Part shown: positions 22,568-55,443 of the stretch, one piece after another | Numbering within the stretch: the first letter of the stretch is position 1 | How the letters are laid out: the number at the start of each line of letters is the position of its first letter | Assembly: GCA_963169765.1 (NCBI GenBank) | Contig: CAUJEN010000109.1 | Coordinates: 27,497 to 91,496 of the forward strand | Length of the DNA: 64,000 nucleotides | Direction: 5' to 3' | DNA from: Vulcanimicrobiota bacterium | GTDB lineage: Bacteria > Vulcanimicrobiota > Xenobia > Xenobiales > QWHO01 | The notes under the pieces: model-generated | Told to the model about the DNA's origin: nothing | Databases searched by the model: none | Seen by the model: the letters and a program-made list of their open reading frames with translations, nothing else | Translations under genes and position numbers: made by a program

Positions 22568-23899
22568 TCACAGCCCATCGATCAGCTCGCGCAGCTTGTC
22601 GACCGTGGGATGGCTTCGGCCCAGAAGGCTCTCCTGCAGGATCAGGGCTTCGGCCAGATAGAGCCGGCCCTCGCGCGGGTAGCCCTGCGAGGCCGAGTAG
22701 CGGCCCATGGACTCGAAGAAGGCGGCCCTTGCCTGGCGCGTGCCCAACCCCTGGGCCGCCACCAGCTCCTGGACGTGTCCCTCCAGCTGGCGCGGAGGGA
22801 TGCGCAACTGCTGAAGCACCTGCACCAGACCCTGGAGCAGCGCGACCGAACGTTCCGGGGCCAGTTGCAGGGCCCTCTGGTAGTGGGTCCGGGCGTCCAG
22901 CAGCCGGTTCTCGGCCACGGCCTTCTCGGCCGCTGCCACGATCAGCCTCAAGTTGGGCCCCTCGAGCTTCTCGCGGGCCTGCAGCAGCCGCTCAAGCTGG
23001 CTCAGCCTGGCTCGCTCGAGCTGGGACTCGAGGTAGGCCGAGGCTCGCTCCAGCTGAGCCGGGCTCATCTCGGGCAGGCGCTCCCAGAGCAAGTTGCGCA
23101 GCTCGCGCAGGGCCTCCTTGATTTGCCCGGTCAGCTCTTGAAAGCGCCGGTCCTCGGCCACCCCGTCCAGCTCCTGCTTGAGCTTCAGGGCCGAGGTCCA
23201 GACCACGGCTCTGATTCCGCGGGTAGGGGGGGCCTCGAAGGCCAGTCCGTCCACCACCAGCACGGTCTTGGAGGCGACCTCATTCCCGGTCAGGCCCAGT
23301 GCGGCCACGAAGTCGCCCCCCGGAGCCGGTCGGCTCTCCACCTGGGCTCGCGCGGGGCGGTAGAAAGGCATTCCCTCCACCGGTCCCCACAACAGAACGG
23401 CCAGGCATCCCTTGAGGTCGAAGCGTCCCCGCACCGGGGTCCCCCCCACCGAGACAGGGATGGGGCAAAGCTGGCAGAAGCTCTTCAGGCAGCGGTCCTC
23501 GCGGTGGACCGGGCGGCTGAGCATTCGCTTGACGATCGCCGGCCGGCAGTCGAGCTCGAAGACGACGTCGCTGCAGGGTTGGCTGAGCACCGCCCGTAGC
23601 TCGCCTCGCACGCGCAGCAGTGTGCCCGAGCTCTGCAGCCTGATCTCGCGGGGCTGCAGCCGGGAGGCCAGAGCCACGGCTCGGGCCAGGGCGCCCTCGG
23701 GTCCCGGAGCCTCGAGGCACTCCGACAATCGCTCGATGGTGGTGGACCCCACCTCCAGGCCGGGCAGCTCAAATCGGGTCACCCAGCCATGGTGCTCCAT
23801 GCGCACCTCGCGGGCTCCTCCGCGCAAAGCGGCTTGAACCAGGCACAGGGCGTAAAGCTCGGGATCGCACTGGCGCGGCTCCGACTCGGGTTGCTTCAT
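22568..23899 (-). CDS. hypothetical protein with a helical-repeat (TPR-like) C-terminal region
   Basis: 443-aa GC3-rich ORF. The C-terminus AENRLLDARTHYQRALQLAP...GRLYLAEALILQESLLGRSHP is TPR-like. No catalytic motif recognised. Confidence 0.68.
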   Translation of the reverse strand: MKQPESEPRQCDPELYALCLVQAALRGGAREVRMEHHGWVTRFELPGLEVGSTTIERLSECLEAPGPEGALARAVALASRLQPREIRLQSSGTLLRVRGELRAVLSQPCSDVVFELDCRPAIVKRMLSRPVHREDRCLKSFCQLCPIPVSVGGTPVRGRFDLKGCLAVLLWGPVEGMPFYRPARAQVESRPAPGGDFVAALGLTGNEVASKTVLVVDGLAFEAPPTRGIRAVVWTSALKLKQELDGVAEDRRFQELTGQIKEALRELRNLLWERLPEMSPAQLERASAYLESQLERARLSQLERLLQAREKLEGPNLRLIVAAAEKAVAENRLLDARTHYQRALQLAPERSVALLQGLVQVLQQLRIPPRQLEGHVQELVAAQGLGTRQARAAFFESMGRYSASQGYPREGRLYLAEALILQESLLGRSHPTVDKLRELIDGL

Positions 23900-23980
23900 C
23901 CGGGCGATGCTTCTCGGTGTCCGGGCTCCGCTTCCTGGTCGGGGAGGATTGCTTCAGATGCGGCGAACTTGCCGCAGCTC

Positions 23981-25051
23981 ATGGCTCGTGTGCTCTTTTA
24001 CCTTTGCCTGGTGCTATCGCTGGCCGTTCCCCTGGTGGCTCAAGAGCCTCACCGCCGTCTCAAAATCGGCCTTGTGGGCACGCCCCCCTTCGTGCTCTAC
24101 GAGAGCCAGAGGCCGACCGGTATCGCGGTGGAGCTGTGGGAGGAGATGGCCGACCGCTTGAAGCTAGAGTACGACTATCACCACGTCGAAAGTCAGCACC
24201 GCGGCCTGGAGGACCTCAGCCACAACGAGCTCGACGTCCTGGTCGGAACGCTGAGTATCACGGCCGAGCGCGAGCGCGTGGTGGACTTCACCCAGCCCTA
24301 TTATCAGTCCACCGTGGCCATCCTCTCGCCCATGAAGGGCAGCACCTGGGATCGGCTGCGTCCGGTGGCTCGAACGGCCGCCATTTATGGCCTGGCAGTC
24401 ATTTTCCTGGCTCTGCTCCTGGTGGGCTCCCTGCTCTGGTTGCTCGAGCGGGGAACCAACAAGCAGTTCCCGGAAACTCCCGGCCCTGGCATCGCCACCG
24501 GGTTCTGGCTGGCCCTGGTGACCATGTCCACGGTCGGCTACGGTGACCGGGTACCGGTCACGCCGGGCGGGCGGGTGGTGAGCTCGGTCTGGATTCTCCT
24601 CTCCATGCTGATCGTCGGCTCTCTTGTGGCTGGAATCTCCAGCTCGCTGACACTCAGCCAGATCAACGCCAATCCCATTGAGAAACCCGCTCAACTTGAG
24701 GACCTGCGGGTAGCCACGGTGGCGGGCAGCTTCTTCGAGGGTGTGGTGGGTCGTTACACCGACCGCGTGGTGCTCAGGCCCGGTCTGGACGCGGCCATCG
24801 CGGCGGTGTTGGAAGGCAAGGCCGACTGTGTCGTGTTCGACCGGCCCAGCCTGAGCTATTTCCTGGCCAAGTATCCGGAGCTGCCGCTCCACCTCAGCTC
24901 GTTTCCCTTCGAGCCCCAGAATTACGGCTTTGGCCTGCCTCCCGACTTTGAGCTGACGAACGATTTGAACATCGTTTTGCTGGCCATCATCGAGTCGGGC
25001 CGCCTGAGGCAGATCGAGAGTCGCTGGCAGAGCAGCCTGGAGGGGGAGTGA
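23981..25051 (+). CDS. GluR0-type ligand-gated potassium channel (periplasmic binding-protein fold interrupted by a K+ channel pore)
   Basis: Signal peptide MARVLFYLCLVLSLAVPLVAQE; SBP lobe 1 (IGLVGTPPFV...VDFTQPYY); TM helix; pore helix and filter FWLALVTMSTVGYGDRVP (TVGYGD at 24530-24547); second TM helix; SBP lobe 2 (RVATVAGSFFE...FDRPSLSYF...YGFGLP). Confidence 0.85.
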   Translation: MARVLFYLCLVLSLAVPLVAQEPHRRLKIGLVGTPPFVLYESQRPTGIAVELWEEMADRLKLEYDYHHVESQHRGLEDLSHNELDVLVGTLSITAERERVVDFTQPYYQSTVAILSPMKGSTWDRLRPVARTAAIYGLAVIFLALLLVGSLLWLLERGTNKQFPETPGPGIATGFWLALVTMSTVGYGDRVPVTPGGRVVSSVWILLSMLIVGSLVAGISSSLTLSQINANPIEKPAQLEDLRVATVAGSFFEGVVGRYTDRVVLRPGLDAAIAAVLEGKADCVVFDRPSLSYFLAKYPELPLHLSSFPFEPQNYGFGLPPDFELTNDLNIVLLAIIESGRLRQIESRWQSSLEGE

Positions 25052-25112
25052 GCAGGTGCCCCGTGCCTGGTTCAGGAACCTGGCCTTATTCATGGAAAGG
25101 AGGTCCCCTCGA

Positions 25113-25835
25113 ATGCGGCGATGGATCTCCTGCCTCGCTCTGGTCCTGGGACTGGTCCTGGTGGCCGGTCCGGCCTGGGGTGAGCAGGTCTACATTCGCA
25201 ACAAGCCCTTCAAAGGAGCGGTGTCGGGCAAAGGGCCCGCGACCGCCGTTGAGTTGCAGGCCCTGGTTGCAGCGCTAGGTTTCCAGTTGACCGAGGTGCA
25301 GGGCAACTGGGTGGTCACCGCTGAGGGTGAAACGGCGGCTTTGCCGACCGACGCCAGCGGCACCGGACAGGTCTACTATCAGGGCAAGCCCATCGCGACG
25401 GCCGACCAGGCGGGAGCCACCCTGGTGCCGCTGATCCCCACGGCTCAGGCCCTGGGCGCGGTGGCCAGGCACAACAAGGACATGGGCAGCATCGACGTCA
25501 ACCTGCCGGTGAAGTCGGTCAGCAGCACAGGCTCTTCGCCGGCCAGCTCTGGCGGTGGGACCAGGCTGATCAACTTCTGGGCCAGTTGGTGAGGGCCGTG
25601 TCGGCGCTTCAAGCCGACCCTGGCTCAGTTTGAGTCAGCCCAGAACGTGCCCATCGAGTACATCAACGTCGACGACGCAAACCAGATGAAGAAATACCCC
25701 GACCTTGCCAAGCAGGTCCGGGGCATCCCGGCCACCTTCGTGGTCGACTCAAGCGGTAAAGTGCTGACCTTCTTCGCGGGAGGGTTGGACTACAACGCGC
25801 TGGTGGCCAGGTATAAGCAAGCCACCAAGAAGTGA
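25113..25835 (+). CDS. exported thioredoxin-fold protein with in-frame TGA at the first Cys of WCGPC (candidate selenoprotein, or a nonsense pseudogene)
   Basis: AAGGAGG lies 9 nt upstream of ATG 25113. Signal peptide MRRWISCLALVLGLVLVAGPAWG. Track ORFs 25056..25592 and 25647..25835 share a frame. Reading through TGA 25590-25592 gives LINFWASW-TGA-GPCRRFKPTLAQFE...VRGIPATFVVDSSGKVLTFFAGG. Confidence 0.6.
25593..25626 (+). promoter_or_regulatory. SECIS-like stem-loop directly 3' of the in-frame UGA
   Basis: Upper stem GTCGGC (25600-25605) / GCCGAC (25613-25618) with loop GCUUCAA. Lower stem GGGCC (25593-25597) / GGCTC (25622-25626, one G-U pair), with a small internal loop. The apical loop starts 14 nt after the UGA. 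Confidence 0.45.
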
Positions 25836-25836
25836 G

Positions 25837-25867
25837 AAAAAGCGCGCCGGGGGGGGGCGCGCTTTTT
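25837..25867 (+). terminator. rho-independent terminator
   Basis: AAAAAGCGCGCC (25837-25848), a G7 loop, then GGCGCGCTTTTT (25856-25867). It lies directly after the stop at 25835. Confidence 0.8.
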
Positions 25868-26405: not shown

Positions 26406-27512
26406 TCAGCTCTGTCGCCAGGCGACCGATTCGATTTTGCGTCCCAGTCCGCGCTGCAAGGTTCGCCACCTGGCCGCTTCGGCTTCGGTCAGCAGGGTGA
26501 TGGCGGTCCCCTCGCGCTCCATGCGCCCCGTGCGGCCCACCCGGTGGGTGAGCAACTCGGAGCTCTCGGGTAACTCGTAGTTGATGACCAGCTCGACGTG
26601 GTCGACGTCGAGCCCTCGGGCGGCCACGTTCGTGGCCACTAAGATGCCGATCTTGCCGGCCCTGAAGTCGGCCATGACGCGGTCTCGGGCGTTCTGGCTC
26701 AGGTTACCCTGCAGGCAGCCCACCGGATAGCCCAGTTTCTCGAGAATCCGGCCCAGCTTTTTGACCCCGTGCTTGGTGCGGCCAAACACGATGGTGGAGC
26801 CGTCGGGGCGCTTGTCGAGCAAAGTCTTCAGGGCATCCATGCGCTGCTCGGGAGCCACCCAGTAGGCCAGCTGGCGGATGTTGGCGGGCACCTCGGGGCG
26901 GTCCACGCTGACCTTCTCGGGCTGGTACATGTGCTTGCGGCTGGCCGAGAGCACCCAGTCGGGCATGGTGGCCGAGAAAAGGGCTGTTTGCCGGTCCCTG
27001 GGAAGCAAGGCCAGGATGCGTTCCACGTCGGGCGCAAAGCCCTTGTCGAGCATCTCGTCGGCCTCGTCGAGCACGACGAACTCGACCTTACCCAGTTGCA
27101 GCGAGCCCCGTCTGGCCAGGTCGAGCACCCGCCCGGGGGCGCCGACCACGACCTGGGCGCCCTGGAGCTGGGCCACCTGGGTGTTGATGGAGCGGCCCCC
27201 GAAGACCTGCACGGCGCGAATGCCGTCAGCACGACCGAGCTCGTCGATGACGCTGGCAACCTGGGCGGCCAGCTCGCGGGTGGGGGCCAGCACCAGCGCC
27301 TGAACCCAGGGCTGGGCGGGGTCGAGAAACTCCATCATGGGCAGGGCGAAGGCCAGGGTCTTGCCCGAGCCCGTGCGGGCCTGCCCGAGCACGTCACGGC
27401 CTTCGAGCAGGAGGGGAATGGTGGTTCTCTGGATGGGAGTGGGGGTGGTGATCTGCATGCGTTGAAGCGCCTTCAGGCTGCCAGGCAGCAGATCATAGGG
27501 GGTAAAAGACAA
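26406..27512 (-). CDS. DEAD-box ATP-dependent RNA helicase (core only, 368 aa)
   Basis: Q-motif TPTPIQ, ARTGSGKT, PTRELA, DEAD (VLDEADEM), SAT, and HRVGRTGR. Confidence 0.92.
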   Translation of the reverse strand: MSFTPYDLLPGSLKALQRMQITTPTPIQRTTIPLLLEGRDVLGQARTGSGKTLAFALPMMEFLDPAQPWVQALVLAPTRELAAQVASVIDELGRADGIRAVQVFGGRSINTQVAQLQGAQVVVGAPGRVLDLARRGSLQLGKVEFVVLDEADEMLDKGFAPDVERILALLPRDRQTALFSATMPDWVLSASRKHMYQPEKVSVDRPEVPANIRQLAYWVAPEQRMDALKTLLDKRPDGSTIVFGRTKHGVKKLGRILEKLGYPVGCLQGNLSQNARDRVMADFRAGKIGILVATNVAARGLDVDHVELVINYELPESSELLTHRVGRTGRMEREGTAITLLTEAEAARWRTLQRGLGRKIESVAWRQS

Positions 27513-27628
27513 AAGTCAACAGGGTCCTTTCCGAAAGACGAAGCGATCGATTGGAGGCAGCATACAGGAAAAGAACCATTCTGTCCACTCGGGCAGGTTC
27601 CGGCCGCGCCGCGACGGAAACCATCGAG

Positions 27629-28681
27629 ATGAAATGGCTGATCGGAGCCCTGCTCCTCCTCCAGGTGGGATGTAGCACCCCGCCCCCCGCGCCGGTGGCC
27701 TCCAGCAGCCCCGGCCCATCGGCTTCCCCCCGCGCCCCCGAAACCGAGCAGGACTTCGTCAACCAGATCGACCAGCTCGGTCGCCAGGGCCAGTTCCAGA
27801 AGGGAGTGGAGGCGGCCAATCAGGGCCTGGAGCGCCATCCTGGAAGCTGGCAGCTGACCGCCCAGAGGGGCGCTTGCCAGCAGATGCTGGACCATCCCGC
27901 CCAGGCAGCCGAAGATTTTGCAGCCGCCCTCGAGCAGGCCCCGGCCGCCCGCAAGTGGGGACTGCACCTGGGTCGGGCTCAGTGCTACGCGACGCTCGAC
28001 CAGCGCCCGCGAGCCGAGAAAGAGTTCGCTTGCGCCCTGAAAACCTTCGACCCGGCCGCCGAGGCCTGGCGCCGCCAGCAGATCCACCAGCAGCGGGGCC
28101 GCAACCTGCTCGAGGACGGGCGTTTCAAGCAGGCCATATCGAGCTTCGACGCCGCTCTGAAACTCGACCCCAGGGATTACGAGGCCCTGGGAATGCGGGC
28201 CCTGTGCTACCAGCAGCTCAAAGACAAAAAGCGTTACCAGGTCGATCTGAAGGCTTTGAAAGAGCTCAGCCCGGCGACCGCCCAGGCAGTGGAAGCCCAG
28301 GTCAAGTCCGGCGGCAGTCTCAGCGCCACCGCCCGCTACCTCAAGCTGGGCGACCAGCTGGCCGCCGACGACAAGGTGGACCTGGCTCTGGAGCAGTATG
28401 AGAAGGCCATCGCCCTCGAGCCCCGCGATCCGGGCGCTTATGTTCGCAAGGGGGTCTTGCTGCAGTCGGAGGGCCGCTTTCAGGAAGCCATCCTGGCTTA
28501 CACGCGCTCCATCGAGCTCTCGCCCAGCGGCCCCGCCCTGGCGGGTCGGGCCGACTGCTACCTGGCCACCGACCAGGTTGCCAGGGCGCGGGCCGACTAT
28601 GAGAAGATGCTGACCCTGCCAGACCCCCAGGCGCAGAGGACGGGCCGGCAAGCCCTGAAGGACCTGCCCGGAGGAGATTGA
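27629..28681 (+). CDS. TPR repeat lipoprotein
   Basis: MKWLIGALLLLQVGCS is a lipobox-like signal with Cys, followed by a Pro/Ser linker and then TPR units. Confidence 0.8.
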   Translation: MKWLIGALLLLQVGCSTPPPAPVASSSPGPSASPRAPETEQDFVNQIDQLGRQGQFQKGVEAANQGLERHPGSWQLTAQRGACQQMLDHPAQAAEDFAAALEQAPAARKWGLHLGRAQCYATLDQRPRAEKEFACALKTFDPAAEAWRRQQIHQQRGRNLLEDGRFKQAISSFDAALKLDPRDYEALGMRALCYQQLKDKKRYQVDLKALKELSPATAQAVEAQVKSGGSLSATARYLKLGDQLAADDKVDLALEQYEKAIALEPRDPGAYVRKGVLLQSEGRFQEAILAYTRSIELSPSGPALAGRADCYLATDQVARARADYEKMLTLPDPQAQRTGRQALKDLPGGD

Positions 28682-48571: not shown

Positions 48572-50710
48572 TTGACGGACCTGGAAGACCGGATTGGGGT
48601 GGACACTTTGCGCGGCCACGACCTGGAAACGCTGGTTTGTTTCCTGAGCCAGCCTCGTTTGTACTGGGCCGAGATGGAGTCGGGCTGCAAGTTGCTGGCG
48701 CGAAGCGGAGATGTTTGCGAGCTTTTCACGGCCGAGTGGAGCTTGGCCCTGGGAGCCTACGCCCTGGGAGAATTTGCTTGGCTCGAGCAGACGGGCAGGC
48801 GTCTTCATCGCCAGGCAGAGCAGCTCGAATCTGAGTTGGGCCAGGGGACGGCTCTGGGGATCTGGGCCTTGGGAACGGGTGGTCTGGTGCCTCATGAGCT
48901 GCTCGAGAAGGCTGGTCGGGGGGAGCAGACTCGGCACCAGCTGACTCTGGCTCAGGCGCTGCGCTTGCTGCGTGACGGTCGCTGTCAGCAGGCGGCCGCT
49001 CTCCTTCACGACTGCCTGCTTCACCCGCCTGATGACAGGATGTGGGTCCCACTGGCCTGTTTCGAGGCCACCGCCTGGAGGCAGGCGGCTGAATCGTCTG
49101 CGTTGGAGGCCGAGTGCCAGGAGCTCTATCGCCGAGCCCGCCGGGCCGCTCGACGGGCTTGCAAGGCAAGCCAACGATTCATGCCATTTCAGCTGGCCCA
49201 CGCGCTGCGCGAGGAGGCGCTGCTGGCCGCTGCCAGGGGCCATGTGGCTCGGGCGGAGAGCCTGCTGGCCCGAAGTCTGCAGGAAGCACTTACACGACAG
49301 CTCGACTACGAGGCGGCCCTGACCGAGCTGGAATGGGAGCGTTTCCGAGGGGGCGATCCATCCGGGCCCCAGCGCAGGCTCCTTTCCATGGGCGCATTCT
49401 GGCACGCTGCTCCAACCCCACCCCCCACGCTGGCCCTGGCCGACCGGTTCGAGCAGGCCTTGCATTGGGGTCGCCAGCAGGCCGAGTGCCTGGACGAGGA
49501 ACGCTGGCCCGGGTTGTTGCGAGACGCGGCCCTGGCGCTACTGCGAGGGGAGGAAGCTCTGGTGCTCAGCTGGCCCGAGTTGAGCCTTCTGGCAGGCCCA
49601 CCCGGGCGCTTCAGCCGGTCTTTGTTGGAGGCAGCAGCCAGGTCGGGTCGGGCCCAGGTCGCCGACGAGAGCGACACCGAGAGCCTTCTGCTCAGCAGCG
49701 TGCGTTCGGCCCTGGCTGCCCCGGTGCAGGTCGGCGGTGCGACCGTCGCCTGCCTTTATACCACCGGGCTGTTTGCCGGAGACGAGCAAGATCTGGCTGA
49801 CTTCCTGACCGCTCTGGCCGGTGGCGCTCTCGAGAACGTGCTCGGACTGACCGCCGGCAGGAAGTCTCGCGAGCAGCTCCTGGCTGAGCAAGCTCTCGTT
49901 GAGGGGGTCTTCGAAGCTTCCGGGGTCGGCCTGGCCTTGCTCGACGCCGGCCAGAGCCTGCTGCGCGCGAATCAGGCCTTTCTGGCTCGAAGCGGAGGCT
50001 CGCTGGCCGAGGCCCTGCGACCCTGCGAGACGGTCTGGCACGAGCTGCAAACAGGGCGGCGCGATAGCTGGGTTGGCCACATCCCGCTCGGCGGGGCCTT
50101 GAGTCGCCTCAGCCTGACCGCCCTGGGCGAGGAGGTGGTGGCCAGCCTGGCCGAGGCGCCCTTGCGTGGCCTCCTGGCGCTGGCCCGATTCCAGCGCCAG
50201 GAGGCGGCTGAGCTGACCGCCCAGGTGCACGAGCACCTGGTCGTGCCCCTGCAAAAACTGGAGTCGCTCCTGGAAGTCGGTGAGCTGGAGCGAGCCGGTC
50301 AGCTGGCAGGGGAGACCGTGCGCTCGGTCAGCACTCAGATCGGGGCTCTGCGCAACCCGGTGGTGGAGGGTCGGCCCTTGCTGCCGGCACTGCGTTCCCT
50401 CCTGAGGCGCTGGCAGCGTTCCTCGGGGCTCAGCATACGGGCCCGGCTTCCTCGGAAGGTCCCTGGTGGGCCGGCGGCGGAGGTGACTTTCCGACTCGTC
50501 GAGCGATCTCTGGAGGCAGTGCGCGAGTCGGGAGCCAGGAACCTGCTGCTCGTCATGGGGACCCGGCGACCCTGGCTGCAAGTGAGGATTCGCCATGACG
50601 GGGGCGTCCTGGTTTCGAGGTTGCGTCCTCTGCGGGCGCGCGCGCGCCTTCTGGGTGGCGGGCTGCGGACGACCGAGGACGGCTTTCGCTTCCGGGTGCC
50701 GTTGTCGTGA
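48572..50710 (+). CDS. GAF-PAS-HisKA_3 sensor protein with a degenerate ATPase domain (pseudo-histidine kinase), paralog of 52891..55443
   Basis: An H-box-like AELTAQVHEHLVVPLQ is present. The C-terminal region lacks the N-box Asn and the DxGxG motif (IRHDGGVL). It aligns by eye with the 52891 ORF, e.g. FEQALHWGRQ / FEQTLQWGRR and LVLSWPELSLLAGPPGRFSRSLLE / LVLSWPDCAILAGPPRPFSRTLLE. The TTG start is uncertain. Confidence 0.78.
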   Translation: MTDLEDRIGVDTLRGHDLETLVCFLSQPRLYWAEMESGCKLLARSGDVCELFTAEWSLALGAYALGEFAWLEQTGRRLHRQAEQLESELGQGTALGIWALGTGGLVPHELLEKAGRGEQTRHQLTLAQALRLLRDGRCQQAAALLHDCLLHPPDDRMWVPLACFEATAWRQAAESSALEAECQELYRRARRAARRACKASQRFMPFQLAHALREEALLAAARGHVARAESLLARSLQEALTRQLDYEAALTELEWERFRGGDPSGPQRRLLSMGAFWHAAPTPPPTLALADRFEQALHWGRQQAECLDEERWPGLLRDAALALLRGEEALVLSWPELSLLAGPPGRFSRSLLEAAARSGRAQVADESDTESLLLSSVRSALAAPVQVGGATVACLYTTGLFAGDEQDLADFLTALAGGALENVLGLTAGRKSREQLLAEQALVEGVFEASGVGLALLDAGQSLLRANQAFLARSGGSLAEALRPCETVWHELQTGRRDSWVGHIPLGGALSRLSLTALGEEVVASLAEAPLRGLLALARFQRQEAAELTAQVHEHLVVPLQKLESLLEVGELERAGQLAGETVRSVSTQIGALRNPVVEGRPLLPALRSLLRRWQRSSGLSIRARLPRKVPGGPAAEVTFRLVERSLEAVRESGARNLLLVMGTRRPWLQVRIRHDGGVLVSRLRPLRARARLLGGGLRTTEDGFRFRVPLS

Positions 50711-52875
50711 AGTTTGAGCTCCAGAGCCTGCTCAAGTCGTCTCTGGGCGTGGAAACCTGGCTGGGTCGCGCGGGGGAGGAGGCGGTTCTGGTCAAGCGGG
50801 CGGTCGAGGAATCCGGAGCCTGGCTGCGATTGAGCCATGAGGCGGAGGTTCTGGGCCGGCTCAGCCACCCGCGTATTCCTCGCTTGCGCTGGCTGGGACG
50901 CGGTGAGAGTTTTCTCACTGTGGTGGCCGACTTCATCCCTGGCTCGACCCTGGAGGAGCGGCTGGCCCAGGGTCCGATGAGTGTCGAGGAAACCACCGCG
51001 CTGGCGGAGCAGTTGCTCGAGACCCTGCGGGTCGTCCATGAGCAGGGCTTGCTTCACCGCGATCTTAAGCCGTCCAACCTGATCTGGGAGCAGGGCCAGC
51101 TGTGGGTGATCGACTGGGGGTTGGCGCGCAGTCCCTGGCTGCACGCCACTGTGCGCGAGCTTCCGGCCGGCACGGTGCACTATCTGGCTCCTGAGCTGGC
51201 GGGCAGCTTGCGGCGCCGGGTGGGGGAGCCCGCCGACCTCTACTCGGTCGGGGTGGTGCTTTTTCGCTGCCTGACCGGTCGGGTGCCCTTCTCGGGCAGC
51301 TCGGTCAATGAGGTGCTGCGCCAGCACGTGAGCGCCCCCGTTCCCCCCTTCGGCGCCGAGGGGCGATTGGGGGGGGTGATTCGCGAGCTGCTCGCCAAGG
51401 AGCCTGATCGTCGCCCAGCCGGGGCGCAAGGGGCCCTGGATCGCCTCTCGGGCCGCACTGACCGGCGGCCCGGGACGCTTCTTGAAGCCCCCCTGGTGGG
51501 GCGAGAGAGGGAGTTGGAGCTTCTGGGCCAGGTCCTGTGCGGGTCTTCTCGTTTGCTGCTGGTTGGCGAGGCCGGCAGTGGCAAGACCCGGCTGCTCGAA
51601 GCTCTGGTGGCCCGCGCTGTCGGAGCGGGATGGCGGGTGCTGCAAGGGCAGGCTCTCAGTCGGCTGGAATCGGTGCCTCTGCAGCTGTTTTCCGGGCCGC
51701 TGTTCGAGCTGGCTCAGGAGGCTGATCGCGAGCTGGCCGAGCGATTGGGCGTGCACGGCCCGGTGTTGGCCCGGGTCGCTCCCCAGCTGAGCGCCTGGTT
51801 GGGCACGCCGGCCCCCGAGACTGGACCACTCGAGCTGGGCCCCAACCTTGTCTCGAGCGCTCTGAGCGCGCTGTTGAAGGGCCTGCCGGGGCCCACCTTG
51901 CTGGCGCTCGACGACGTGCAGTGGGCGGACGGGTTGAGTCTCGAGCTGGCTGGCAGGGTCGAGCTTCCGCCCGGGGTATCCCTGGTGCTGGCGGGCCGTT
52001 CCCAGCCTGCCGAGCTGTCTGGCTTCTCCCGGATCGACCTCGGGCCGCTCGACGAGGCTGCCGGACGCCAGCTTCTGGAGAGCATGCTGGGCGGTCTGGA
52101 GGGCCCGGTGGCAGCGCAACTGCTCTCGCATGCCTCTGGCAATCCCTTTCTTCTGGTGGAGGGTGCCCGCGGCGTGGCCGAGCACGGAGCCGACGAGCTG
52201 CAGACTTCGGCCCGGTCGGGCTGGTTGCTGGTGGACCGATTGCAGGCTCTGCCCCTGGAGTGCCGGAGCGTCCTGCAGCGGGCAGCGGCTCTGGGCAGGT
52301 TGTTCTCGCTGCAAACCCTGCATAGCTTGGGAGTCTCCGATCCCTGTGCCGCCCTGCTGCCGGCCCAGCACGCGGGCCTGGTCTGGGCGACCGCCTCGGA
52401 AAGCGAGTATTCTTTTGCTCACGACCGGATTCGAGAGAAGGTCTACGAGAGCCTGGGAGAGGAGCGTCGACGCCAACTCCATCGCCAGGCTGCCGAGGCG
52501 CTCATCCACGCTTCCCCGGCCGTGCAGGCCCATCACCTCTGGCAGGCCGGAGAGCCCGAGCGGGCTCGCCCCCATGCCCTGGTTGCCGCCCAGCGGAGTC
52601 GAGAGAGCTTTGACTTTGGCACGGCCGCGGTTTTCTATCGCATGGCTCTGGAGGTCGAGCCCGATGACCTGGCCGCTCGCGAGGCTCTGGCTGACGTGCT
52701 CGGCTTCAGTCACCGCCAGAGTGAGGCGAAGATGATCTACCTGGAGCTTCTGCCGCTCTTGTCTGACCCGCTCGACCGGGCGCGGGTGCGTGTGCGCCTG
52801 GGCCATCTGTGCCTGTGCCTCAATCGATTTCAGGAGGGAGAGGAGTATCTGCTGGACGCGCTTTCCGAGCAGTGA
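50707..52875 (+). CDS. Hanks-type Ser/Thr kinase fused to an AAA (AAA_16/STAND-like) ATPase and helical repeats
   Basis: HRDLKPSNLIW, DWGLA and GTVHYLAPE are present, then Walker A VGEAGSGKTRLLE and Walker B LLALDDVQWAD. The GTG start overlaps the upstream stop in GTGA. Confidence 0.85.
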   Translation: MKFELQSLLKSSLGVETWLGRAGEEAVLVKRAVEESGAWLRLSHEAEVLGRLSHPRIPRLRWLGRGESFLTVVADFIPGSTLEERLAQGPMSVEETTALAEQLLETLRVVHEQGLLHRDLKPSNLIWEQGQLWVIDWGLARSPWLHATVRELPAGTVHYLAPELAGSLRRRVGEPADLYSVGVVLFRCLTGRVPFSGSSVNEVLRQHVSAPVPPFGAEGRLGGVIRELLAKEPDRRPAGAQGALDRLSGRTDRRPGTLLEAPLVGRERELELLGQVLCGSSRLLLVGEAGSGKTRLLEALVARAVGAGWRVLQGQALSRLESVPLQLFSGPLFELAQEADRELAERLGVHGPVLARVAPQLSAWLGTPAPETGPLELGPNLVSSALSALLKGLPGPTLLALDDVQWADGLSLELAGRVELPPGVSLVLAGRSQPAELSGFSRIDLGPLDEAAGRQLLESMLGGLEGPVAAQLLSHASGNPFLLVEGARGVAEHGADELQTSARSGWLLVDRLQALPLECRSVLQRAAALGRLFSLQTLHSLGVSDPCAALLPAQHAGLVWATASESEYSFAHDRIREKVYESLGEERRRQLHRQAAEALIHASPAVQAHHLWQAGEPERARPHALVAAQRSRESFDFGTAAVFYRMALEVEPDDLAAREALADVLGFSHRQSEAKMIYLELLPLLSDPLDRARVRVRLGHLCLCLNRFQEGEEYLLDALSEQ

Positions 52876-52910
52876 GAACCTACCAGCCAATTGTTGCGGG
52901 CTCTAGGTTC
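52876..52910 (+). other. stem-loop immediately 3' of the TGA that separates the two same-frame ORFs
   Basis: GAACCTA (52876-52882) pairs with TAGGTTC (52904-52910). An inner stem AGCC (52885-52888) pairs with GGCT (52899-52902). The apical loop is 10 nt. Confidence 0.5.
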
Positions 52911-55443
52911 CTTGACCAGCTATTTCAAGCACAGGTGGCGGAAGCCCCTGAGGCAGGCTCGTCTGCCTCGTCGCCTTCTCTTGCAGACTTACCAGGGGTT
53001 GGGCGAGTTCCTATCCCACGGAGGGAAGCTGCATCGAGCGTTTCCTGTCTTGCTGGTGCAGACTGAGCTGGCTGCCCGCGATCCGGAGCGCGACGGGGAG
53101 ATCCTCGAGATGCTCAGCACCGCATGCGCGGGGGTTTCTTTGTTCTCCCCGCTCACCGGGTTTGCTGCCCGCCGGGCTCGCGTCTATCTGCAAGGCGCTG
53201 AAGGACTCCCCGACCCCTGGCGCCGAGCCCGAGTTGTGGCCAGGTTGGCACTCGCACTGGTGAATCACGAGCCGGTGGAGTCGGTGGTTCAATTTTTGGA
53301 TGAGTCCATTGATACGCTCATGCGTTGCGGCGAGGTCCATGATGTGCACGCCTCATCGACGATGCGTCAGGCCCTCCTGTATCATTCGGGCCAGTTCGAG
53401 AGGCTCCGGTCCATCGGCGAAGAGCATTACCGATTCTTCGCTCACGGCGAGTCTGAGGAGGGGAGAGCTGGCGCTCTGTTGTACCTGGCCGTCGCGACCG
53501 GGGGCGCCTTGCCGCTTGATCTGGTGCTGGCGGAGTGCCGCAATCCTCCCTTTGAGAACCCGGTGGCGGAAGCCTTGCTGCGCCTCGCCGTCACTCGCTT
53601 TCTCTTGAGTCAGGGCCAGAATCTTGTGGCAGCGCGCATGCTCGCCCGTCCCTCACGGGTGGGTTTTCCCATTCTAGCCGCTAGCATGAAGGCCTGGGAG
53701 GCCACCGCCTGGCGGTTGGCGGCCGAGCAGCCTGAATGCCCGCCCTGGCGGCGCACCGTGTTCTGCCGACGAGCCCGACGGGCAGCCCGGCGGGCCCTGA
53801 ACGGGATGTGGGCGCCGCTGCGTCCGCACGCGCTGCGCGAACTGGCCCTGCTGGCCGCCGCCCGCGGGCGCTGGCGGCTTGCCGAGGCACGTTTTGCGGC
53901 CAGCCTTCGCGAGGCTGAGCGCTGGTGCTACGAGCACGCCTGGACCGAGCTCGAGCGCGAGCGCCTGCGCCGAGCCCGTGGTCTGCCCCACCGGGTCGAG
54001 CGGGCCGAGCAGCGCCTTGCCCGCATGGGGGCGACCTGGCATTTTGAGACCCCTCAGGCTCCACCGCCCGTGGCCGTGGTTGACCTTTTCGAGCAGACTC
54101 TGCAATGGGGTCGACGGCTGATCGGGTTGCTGGGCGGGCCAGCCGAGCTCTACCCGCAGCTGCGAGAAGCGGCTGTGGCCCTGCTGCGGCCCCAGGAGTG
54201 CCTGGTTTTGAGCTGGCCTGACTGCGCGATCCTGGCCGGCCCCCCCCGACCCTTCAGCCGGACCTTGCTCGAGAGGGCCGTCGAGCTGCCGCGCGCCGTC
54301 AGCGCTGACGAGACGGAGCTGTCGGCCAGCTTCCAGTTGTCTCGTGCGAGCTCGGTCCTGACCACGGCCGTGCGGGTGGATGGGGAGGTCGTGGCGCTGC
54401 TCTACCTGACGCACGCGCAGGTCAGCGGGCTTTTTTCCGAGGAGGACGGGCGGCGCATCGACTTTCTGGCCTGCCTGGCCGGGGCTGCTCTGCACAACGC
54501 GCGCTGGCTGGCCGAGCGCGAGCGGGTCGAGCTCGCGCGCCTGGCGACCCGCCGCCAGCTGACCGGACTGCTCGAGAACGCTGGGATCGGCTTGGCCGTG
54601 CTGGATGAGAAGAAGACGATCCAGCGCTCCAACGCCTGGTTGAGCCAGGCTCTGGGTCAGGATCCGGTCGGTCGGCCCCTGGCCGATTTCGTGCTGGCTG
54701 TGGATCAGCGCCACCTGGCCCGGCTGGGCTCGGGTCTGGAGACCGAGCTGCGCTTCCTGCGTCCCGATCGAAGCTTGCTCTGGGCCCGGTGTGGCCTGAG
54801 AAATCTCGACGGCAACTCGGTCTTGAGCGTGCTTGACATCACCCAGCGTCGCCAGCAAGGCCTGGCCAGGTTTCTTGAGGACGAGCGCCGACTTCTTAGC
54901 TCGGAGCTGCACGATGGCGTCGCGGGCGACCTGGCAGCGCTCGCATTCAGCCTGGCCGACCCCGGCGTCGATCGCGGGCAAGCTCTGGCCACGGTCCGCC
55001 GATTGCGAGCCGAAGCCGAGCGTCTGGGCGGTTGCGATCCGCATGCGGAGGAGACTCTCGCCGAGCAGGTCGCCCGCTTTGCCAGGGAAAGCGGTCTGCC
55101 GGTCGAGACCGAGCTGTGCGAGCCAGGCTCCGGGTTGCCCGCTCAGTTCTGTGGCCGCATCATCCAGGAAGCGCTTACCAACGCCCGCCGCCACGCTCGG
55201 GCCAGCCTGGTTCGGGTGAGCGTGCGCCAGGTGGCGGGCGGGCTGGAGGGCCTGGTCTCCGATGACGGGGTCGGCTTCGACGCGGACCGGATGGATCTCT
55301 CGGGGCCCTGCCACTTTGGCTTGCGCGGGTTTCGTCTGCGGGCGGAGTTGCTGGGGGGCTCGGTCGACATTAACTCGCGCCCGGGCCAGGGCACCCGGGT
55401 GCGATTCTTCTTGCCGGTTCCCGGGGGCCTGAGGTCGACCTGA
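52891..55443 (+). CDS. GAF-PAS-HisKA_3-HATPase_c sensor histidine kinase (NarL-type); no independent start signals
   Basis: H-box SSELHDGVAGDL, N-box IIQEALTNARRHA, DDGVGF, and GLRGFRLRAELLGG. It is in frame with 50707..52875 across a single TGA. The nominal TTG start has no SD, and the first ATG is about 70 codons in. Confidence 0.82.
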   Translation: MLRALGSLTSYFKHRWRKPLRQARLPRRLLLQTYQGLGEFLSHGGKLHRAFPVLLVQTELAARDPERDGEILEMLSTACAGVSLFSPLTGFAARRARVYLQGAEGLPDPWRRARVVARLALALVNHEPVESVVQFLDESIDTLMRCGEVHDVHASSTMRQALLYHSGQFERLRSIGEEHYRFFAHGESEEGRAGALLYLAVATGGALPLDLVLAECRNPPFENPVAEALLRLAVTRFLLSQGQNLVAARMLARPSRVGFPILAASMKAWEATAWRLAAEQPECPPWRRTVFCRRARRAARRALNGMWAPLRPHALRELALLAAARGRWRLAEARFAASLREAERWCYEHAWTELERERLRRARGLPHRVERAEQRLARMGATWHFETPQAPPPVAVVDLFEQTLQWGRRLIGLLGGPAELYPQLREAAVALLRPQECLVLSWPDCAILAGPPRPFSRTLLERAVELPRAVSADETELSASFQLSRASSVLTTAVRVDGEVVALLYLTHAQVSGLFSEEDGRRIDFLACLAGAALHNARWLAERERVELARLATRRQLTGLLENAGIGLAVLDEKKTIQRSNAWLSQALGQDPVGRPLADFVLAVDQRHLARLGSGLETELRFLRPDRSLLWARCGLRNLDGNSVLSVLDITQRRQQGLARFLEDERRLLSSELHDGVAGDLAALAFSLADPGVDRGQALATVRRLRAEAERLGGCDPHAEETLAEQVARFARESGLPVETELCEPGSGLPAQFCGRIIQEALTNARRHARASLVRVSVRQVAGGLEGLVSDDGVGFDADRMDLSGPCHFGLRGFRLRAELLGGSVDINSRPGQGTRVRFFLPVPGGLRST

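Follow-up and report, generated by a model that had tools for sequence, protein, structure and literature searches.

Annotation routinely mistakes selenoprotein genes for truncated ones. Here, we describe a candidate of this kind at positions 25113-25835 (plus strand) of a 64,000-nucleotide (nt) stretch of contig CAUJEN010000109.1 (GenBank assembly GCA_963169765.1, contig positions 27,497 to 91,496) from a Vulcanimicrobiota bacterium; the whole stretch is called the window below. The locus is very probably one gene for an exported two-domain thiol-disulfide oxidoreductase, in which an in-frame TGA would specify selenocysteine (Sec) as the attacking active-site residue. A Sec-containing thioredoxin-fold protein had been proposed here in an initial annotation of the DNA, and that interpretation is supported by a TGA conserved in 11 relatives, by homologues with Cys in its place, by selection on the frame downstream, and by conserved hairpins 3' of the UGA.

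Translation of the window gave one open frame at 25113-25835, interrupted only by TGA 25590-25592, which sits in LINFWASW-[TGA]-GPCRRFKPTLAQFES, the part after the stop beginning GPCRRFKP. As the initial annotation had read it, the two listed open reading frames (ORFs) 25056..25592 and 25647..25835 lie in the same frame, 591 nt apart, with this TGA as the sole stop between them. Gene callers had been expected to report fragments, and they do: those behind the public assemblies start the gene at ATG 25113 and end it at the TGA (P0001, a 159-residue N-terminal fragment), every public gene call from two protein searches splits the gene, and no full-length record surfaced.

Ten close homologues (~55-100% identity) were found by protein search, all called as 158- to 178-residue fragments ending in W. 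Their contigs were fetched and the frame was read through the stop; scans of a genome collection and a metagenome collection added two and two loci. The codon was TGA in 11 of 11 distinct relatives with readable DNA, nine of them close orthologues from Candidatus Xenobia, a class within Vulcanimicrobiota/Eremiobacterota, and two of them distant members. Assemblies with the gene include GCA_013328895.1, GCA_013328955.1, GCA_013328915.1, GCA_020063305.1, GCA_039809865.1, GCA_040755595.1, and BTUM01 (Candidatus Xenobia bacterium AMX-MBFR-33). In the nine distinct orthologues, which share ~60-90% amino acid identity where compared, the frame continues past the TGA with G-P-C and ~80 residues of conserved thioredoxin half. 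Unlike the internal TGA, the final stop of the relatives varies (TGA, TAA, or TAG).

Homologues ending at the TGA, or raw reads with TGC or TGT at this codon, had been named beforehand as grounds for rejecting a selenoprotein. Each homologue read at the DNA level instead continues in frame into a conserved thioredoxin half, and the identical gene (P0001 fragment) recurs, on at least 23 contigs, across NCBI assemblies and independent assemblies of read sets covering many samples, which excludes a sequencing error. All of the refutation tests proposed at the outset that were run favored the Sec interpretation. A reassigned genetic code was also considered and ruled out. TGA terminates 25 of the 38 complete ORFs predicted in the window by a simple gene picker based on GC content at third codon positions (GC3), including this gene and its upstream neighbor, and is therefore a normal, preferred stop.

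The downstream half evolves like coding sequence. Pairwise ratios of nonsynonymous to synonymous substitution rates (dN/dS) were 0.07 to 0.60 downstream of the TGA (0.07 to 0.70 without the codons of the candidate Sec insertion element described below), comparable to the 0.19 to 0.42 upstream, no frame-breaking indels separate the orthologues in this half, and GC3 was 0.83 to 0.84 on both sides of the internal TGA (0.84 downstream). Gene callers chose differing downstream starts across relatives (ORFs of 49 to 63 residues); therefore, the downstream ORF has no conserved start of its own. Judged by dN/dS, GC3, the lack of a conserved start, and a Pfam match that crosses the UGA, the sequence 3' of the UGA appears to be translated in the same frame as the sequence 5' of it.

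The effectively refuted alternative is a pseudogene, or a sequencing or assembly error at 25590-25592: such is the usual cause of an in-frame stop in a single sequence, but contig recurrence (identical sequence on at least 23 independently assembled contigs), the retention of TGA and of an intact downstream frame in 11 diverged relatives, and dN/dS values under 1 all contradict it.

With C placed at the TGA, the read-through product matched Pfam Thioredoxin (PF00085) at 41.8 bits (cutoff, 23.5; E value, 1.2e-10), in an alignment that spans the UGA position. Alignment with solved thioredoxins (2i4a; E value, 2.8e-10) put the TGA on the first Cys of WCGPC and RGIPATF on the cis-proline loop. A score that exceeds the gathering threshold, together with W-[U]-G-P-C and an aligned cis-Pro loop, places the protein in PF00085, and the proposal of a thioredoxin fold with TGA at the nucleophilic Cys is borne out by both the Pfam and the PDB alignment. 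It is not a canonical TrxA, scoring 45 bits against a cutoff of 96.8 for the equivalog model NCBIfam TIGR01068, and it fell below the NCBIfam cutoffs for dsbE (40 versus 123 bits), TlpA (36.5 versus 230 bits), and ResA (31.9 versus 170 bits). Among selenoprotein-specific NCBIfam models none scored above its cutoff, the sole match being seleno_TsoB (15.9 versus 805 bits).

The closest Cys-bearing relatives in the first search were TlpA-family proteins with identical flanks (WASWCGPCRR). Like these, the window protein has a thioredoxin-type oxidoreductase fold and would be extracytoplasmic; it differs from TlpA, ResA, and DsbE in that the central insertion of ~20 to 25 residues typical of TlpA-like proteins is absent from the alignment, and its N-terminal domain is not part of those families. 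Sec-containing thioredoxin (PF00085, UxxC) is an experimentally verified family, and UxxC thioredoxin-fold selenoproteins that are established or confidently predicted also include glutaredoxin, thiol:disulfide interchange protein, thiol-disulfide isomerase-like, DsbA-like, and Redoxin proteins (PMC13188914, Table 1). With Sec-containing thioredoxin the window protein shares the fold, a predicted Sec at the first Cys of W-C-G-P-C, the cis-Pro loop RGIPATF, and a coding-region stem-loop after the UGA. It differs in adding a predicted signal peptide, an N-terminal domain of ~110 residues, and a linker, giving two domains with a presumed location outside the cytoplasm, and it lacks the first beta-alpha unit of classical thioredoxin. 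Read as a selenoprotein, the window gene product is an unannotated member of the known UxxC thioredoxin-fold selenoproteins and acts like the known ones.

A profile of the N-terminal domain was searched against 1.84 billion cluster representatives and retrieved 271 proteins, of which 149 of the best 150 were examined together with the first 11 homologues (n = 160). About 47 of the 160 end exactly at the W before the CxxC position, and these related representatives appear to be truncated at the same site; about 9 are full length with Cys. The TGA was read in DNA for two divergent truncated members, L024 (P0117, GCA_016199555.1; FYADW-TGA-GPCKK) and L025 (P0102; FGAPW-TGA-GGCRQ), each with an in-frame thioredoxin half; for the other truncated members the TGA is inferred. 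Four further proteins end at the same place in something other than W (P0148, ...INFWGEG; P0131, ...MNFFGNH; P0201, ...VYYYFDG; P0092, ...IFFTSDT); these may be genuinely truncated or have a Sec motif with another spacing.

The initial annotation had pointed to homologues as a source of Cys/TGA pairs, and such pairs exist: P0108 and P0156 have FYADW-CGPC and P0127 has FYADW-CPPC within the same architecture. A search with these Cys forms returned ~16 full-length Cys clusters of 250 to 274 residues, several with the JGI label "thiol-disulfide isomerase/thioredoxin." The Cys forms (P0108, P0156, P0127, and P0240-P0252) share with the window protein the signal peptide, an N-terminal domain with [EDA]Q[LV][YF][IV]RN[KR]PFKG, the linker, and a thioredoxin domain, which in the Cys forms has FYADW-C-GPC; they differ in having Cys (TGY) where the window gene has TGA and are ~35-40% identical to the Xenobia proteins. 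TGA and Cys members with the same layout thus make Sec/Cys pairs within one architecture. No earlier annotation of this family as selenoproteins appears to exist.

Conservation of the gene at the DNA level is highest in the ~50 nt 3' of the UGA. RNAalifold and single-sequence folds gave two adjacent hairpins there, 25600-25618 (hairpin 1) and 25620-25638 (hairpin 2), both kept in all orthologues, with hairpin 1 in the minimum-energy fold of every orthologue folded. The candidate selenocysteine insertion sequence (SECIS) probably spans both (25600-25638) and is larger than the 34-nt hairpin first proposed. The upper stem of that hairpin (25600-25618, loop GCUUCAA) lies in the minimum-energy fold and is hairpin 1; its lower stem (25593-25597/25622-25626) did not hold up, as it competes with hairpin 2 and its middle pair is lost in five orthologues. 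The folding energy of the single sequence was only marginally better than chance (64-nt fold, z = -1.07, 28 of 200 shuffles folding as well; 56-nt fold, z = -2.6, 3 of 200 shuffles as good), and structural support therefore comes from the comparison of orthologues and not from energy. Across ten sequences, 93% of cells were paired versus 18-42% when the partners were slid, and 3 to 6 of 500 shuffles reached the observed covariation scores, which is modest support from few related sequences.

Hairpin 1 has one compensatory pair (U-A to C-G in 3 of 10 sequences), formed between position 3 of the Cys codon and position 1 of a Thr/Val codon; its stem re-forms 3 nt (one codon) out of register in L022 and L023. 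The loop sequence UUCAA is conserved in the nine Xenobia orthologues and is UUUGA in L025. Hairpin 2 spans the rare A/T-ending codons GCT, TTT, and TCA and is near-invariant in the nine Xenobia orthologues, L011 alone departing from the rest at one loop-closing base; in the distant L025 a U-A pair has become C-G by compensatory change and the loop is GGU, and a comparable hairpin of L024 has its GGU triloop 26 nt after the UGA. In L024 (503-560), the spacing from UGA to the G-first triloop is ~10 nt shorter than in Xenobia and hairpin 1 is replaced by a stem GGGCC/GGCCC; the element thus changes over the evolution of a single protein family. Codons +6 to +15 are frozen at synonymous sites, and among codons for invariant residues a single codon was used at 7 of 14 in +1 to +17 versus 16 of 69 elsewhere (nine sequences; Fisher P = 0.047). 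The frozen codons include CCG, CTG, and the nonpreferred GCT and TCA, despite a GC3 of 0.83.

Hairpin 2, which the initial annotation did not mention and which has a small G-first apical loop, looks at least as SECIS-like as hairpin 1 and seems to fit a typical bacterial SECIS best. As in the Escherichia coli fdhF-type SECIS, the UGA is followed directly, within the coding sequence, by a stem-loop, and an apical loop begins with G(U); the window gene differs in having two adjacent conserved hairpins where fdhF has one long hairpin. The window G-first triloop, 35 nt after the UGA, is also further away than that of the fdhF element. A covariance model of the two-hairpin element, run over the 194 kb of DNA examined, found orthologous sites only and no second gene with the element. 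Bacterial SECIS elements are heterogeneous (PMC9312934). Selenoprotein candidates are judged in the field by whether two or more sequences share the in-frame TGA, whether Cys homologues exist, and whether a stem-loop has a small apical loop that includes G (PMC1088965); the conserved TGA, the Cys homologues, and the stem-loop described here are the counterparts of these.

Several observations weigh against Sec. Covariation is thin, with one compensatory pair per hairpin among related sequences, and Rfam scans (gathering thresholds over the whole window, permissive thresholds over 25540-25720) gave no SECIS or credible RNA family. ARAGORN found no tRNA-Sec in the window and 20 related loci, and SelA, SelB, and SelD were likewise missing from Pfam scans of 39 window ORFs and of the flanking DNA at related loci, stretches that make up a small part of each genome; a literature search returned no report of Sec use in Eremiobacterota, WPS-2, or Xenobia. 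Our confidence in the selenoprotein is high and not higher mainly because the check for Sec machinery covered only the window and related loci.

The lack of Sec machinery at the loci examined and of literature reports for the phylum would also suit UGA read-through of another kind, in which the hairpins would slow termination or help a near-cognate or suppressor tRNA to place a standard amino acid (Trp, Cys, or Gly) at the UGA, yielding a full-length, selenium-free protein. We regard this as very unlikely. Same-architecture homologues have Cys, not Trp or Gly, at the position; a hairpin with a small G-first apical loop 3' of the UGA suits a bacterial SECIS; and, to our knowledge, there is no established bacterial mechanism for programmed non-Sec read-through of UGA at a catalytic residue. 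The TGA also sits at the nucleophilic Cys of CxxC, where Sec/Cys exchange is the rule (PMC13188914).

Slightly more improbable still are two separate products, with the UGA as a true stop, a 159-residue N-domain protein, and a downstream half that is untranslated or made from an internal start. All public gene calls show this split, and some termination at the UGA is expected even in true selenoproteins, but purifying selection acts downstream, including on codons before any candidate start, and the candidate starts are not conserved (49- to 63-residue ORFs). A fragment starting after CxxC would miss the active site and the first beta-strand, and the stop would have to remain TGA in 11 lineages while terminal stops drift.

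For the preferred selenoprotein, translation would start at ATG 25113. At UGA 25590-25592, structured mRNA in the next ~46 nt (the hairpins at 25600-25638) would recruit SelB with Sec-tRNA(Sec), and Sec would be inserted in place of termination. As predicted from the sequence, the 240-residue precursor would be exported through the Sec translocon and lose its 23-residue signal peptide. The mature protein would then consist of a beta-rich N-terminal domain (possibly binding the envelope or a partner), a flexible Ser/Gly/Pro linker, and a minimal thioredoxin fold with W-U-G-P-C, in which the selenolate would attack substrate disulfides or other oxidized sulfur or selenium species and Cys163 would resolve the selenenylsulfide. 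The enzyme is most likely a reductase or isomerase acting outside the cytoplasm, because the motif is of the thioredoxin type (WCGPC). Where Sec insertion fails (e.g., at low selenium), translation would end at the UGA and leave an exported protein of 159 residues with the N-terminal domain only.

A broader proposal, tentative and in its entirety rather doubtful, is that the proteins form an unrecognized, fairly large exported two-domain Sec family in which Sec forms outnumber Cys forms; that they are the first evidence of Sec decoding in Xenobia/Eremiobacterota; that their SECIS has two hairpins with a G-first triloop 35 nt from the UGA; and that the UGA also serves as a selenium-dependent switch between an N-domain-only product and the full oxidoreductase.

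The features of the gene are listed in Table 1.

Table 1. Features of the candidate selenoprotein gene and its flanks (window coordinates)
Feature	Position	Strand	Remarks
Shine-Dalgarno-like AAGGAGG	25097..25103	+	9 nt 5' of ATG; seen in the sequence
Predicted selenoprotein precursor coding sequence	25113..25835	+	240 codons including the Sec codon, then terminal TGA 25833-25835; orthologues collinear over full length
Predicted Sec-type signal peptide	25113..25181	+	Residues 1-23, cleavage AWG/EQ; predicted from the sequence
N-terminal domain, predicted extracytoplasmic	25182..25517	+	Residues 24-135; two beta-beta-alpha-beta-beta units (AlphaFold)
Ser/Gly/Pro-rich linker of variable length	25518..25553	+	AlphaFold predicted local distance difference test (pLDDT) <50; many indels among orthologues
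Minimal thioredoxin-fold domain	25554..25832	+	Residues 148-240; U160-G-P-C163, cis-Pro P206 in RGIPATF; alignments with PF00085, PDB, and Cys homologues
In-frame TGA, predicted Sec codon (residue 160)	25590..25592	+	TGA in 11/11 relatives; aligns with first Cys of WCGPC
TGT, resolving Cys163 of UxxC	25599..25601	+	Third base paired within hairpin 1
Hairpin 1, candidate SECIS	25600..25618	+	6-bp stem, 7-nt loop with conserved UUCAA (UUUGA in L025)
Hairpin 2, candidate SECIS	25620..25638	+	7- to 8-bp stem, GUU triloop starting 35 nt after UGA
Terminator-like hairpin AAAAAGCGCGCC-(G)n-GGCGCGCTTTTT	25837..25867	+	GC rich, then T run; directly 3' of terminal stop; seen in the sequence

The Sec-type signal peptide of the initial annotation can be read from the sequence as a predicted feature: MRRW, a 17-residue hydrophobic core, and AWG before EQ, with a residue at -1 of the predicted cleavage site that is always small in the orthologues (G, A, C, or S). 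The AlphaFold model has a helix at residues 3 to 17 and places residues 31 to 130 of the N-terminal domain in two beta-beta-alpha-beta-beta units at a pLDDT of 81 to 92. A Foldseek search of this domain against the PDB returned no match at an E value of ≤0.001 (best, 0.39). The likeness to copper-amine-oxidase N-terminal domains suggested initially is a lead, not a result: Cu_amine_oxidN1 (PF07833) scored 12.6 to 13.7 bits against a gathering cutoff of 24.2, and 6 of 11 family members gave subthreshold PF07833 matches (best E value, 0.015). The motif [EDA]Q[LV][YF][IV]RN[KR]PFKG marks a widespread module (271 cluster representatives) that matches no Pfam family above threshold and is also fused to several unrelated C-terminal regions (e.g., in P0011, P0091, P0147, and P0186).

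The terminator-like hairpin was missed by a simple terminator scanner, probably as its A and T runs are absorbed into the stem. Its loop region is a nine-G run (25849-25857), and such homopolymers are prone to length errors in assembly.

The upstream gene (23789..25051) encodes a GluR0-type channel (SBP_bac_3, Lig_chan-Glu_bd, Lig_chan, and Ion_trans_2 by Pfam, determined on the identical gene in L014) and ends 61 bp before ATG 25113 on the same strand, the spacing given at the outset. The channel occupies this position, on the same strand, only in the closest relatives, and the adjacency therefore implies no functional link. In other subgroups, the gene is preceded by a divergent CdaA (DAC)-YbbR pair and followed by an AdoMet decarboxylase gene (L001, L004, and L010 versus the window, L007, and L012). 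From these arrangements the gene appears to be monocistronic and to have no conserved partner.

Elsewhere in the window, a Ser/Thr kinase plus AAA_16 ORF (50599-52875, plus strand) and an ORF ending in HATPase_c (52876-55443) share a frame with a lone TGA (52873-52875) between them; the only available start of the second is a TTG five codons after the TGA, with no visible Shine-Dalgarno sequence. Ser/Thr kinase, AAA_16, and HATPase_c domains often occur together in one large sensor-kinase protein, and the pair (50599-55443) could represent one gene that has been split or disrupted, or a further case of read-through. The surroundings of this TGA, LSEQ*EPTSQ, do not resemble those of a Sec codon. 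Other same-frame ORF pairs (MetK with a kinase ORF, 21320/21713, and 43292/44009) were considered as read-through genes and rejected as ordinary neighboring genes: the MetK frame encodes a complete protein ahead of its stop, and the downstream ORFs of the other two start with signal peptides of their own. ARAGORN called a tRNA-Leu(GAG) at 28273-28355 (minus strand), antisense within a TPR-repeat gene (27551-28681, plus strand), with the same call in L014 (13162-13244); the Rfam gathering scan found no tRNA anywhere in the window, and the call is therefore probably a false positive.

Knowledge of how selenoproteins work is unchanged by this gene. The diverged SECIS candidates, with two conserved hairpins, should be useful for better models of bacterial SECIS elements. 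Sec use seems unreported in this uncultivated phylum, and the family seems large and mostly in the Sec form. The corrected annotation would restore a catalytic domain to a conserved, predicted exported protein of the uncultivated Xenobia lineage (Vulcanimicrobiota/Eremiobacterota) and add a family in which Sec seems to be the preferred form; it would imply that the lineage needs selenium and carries the Sec machinery.

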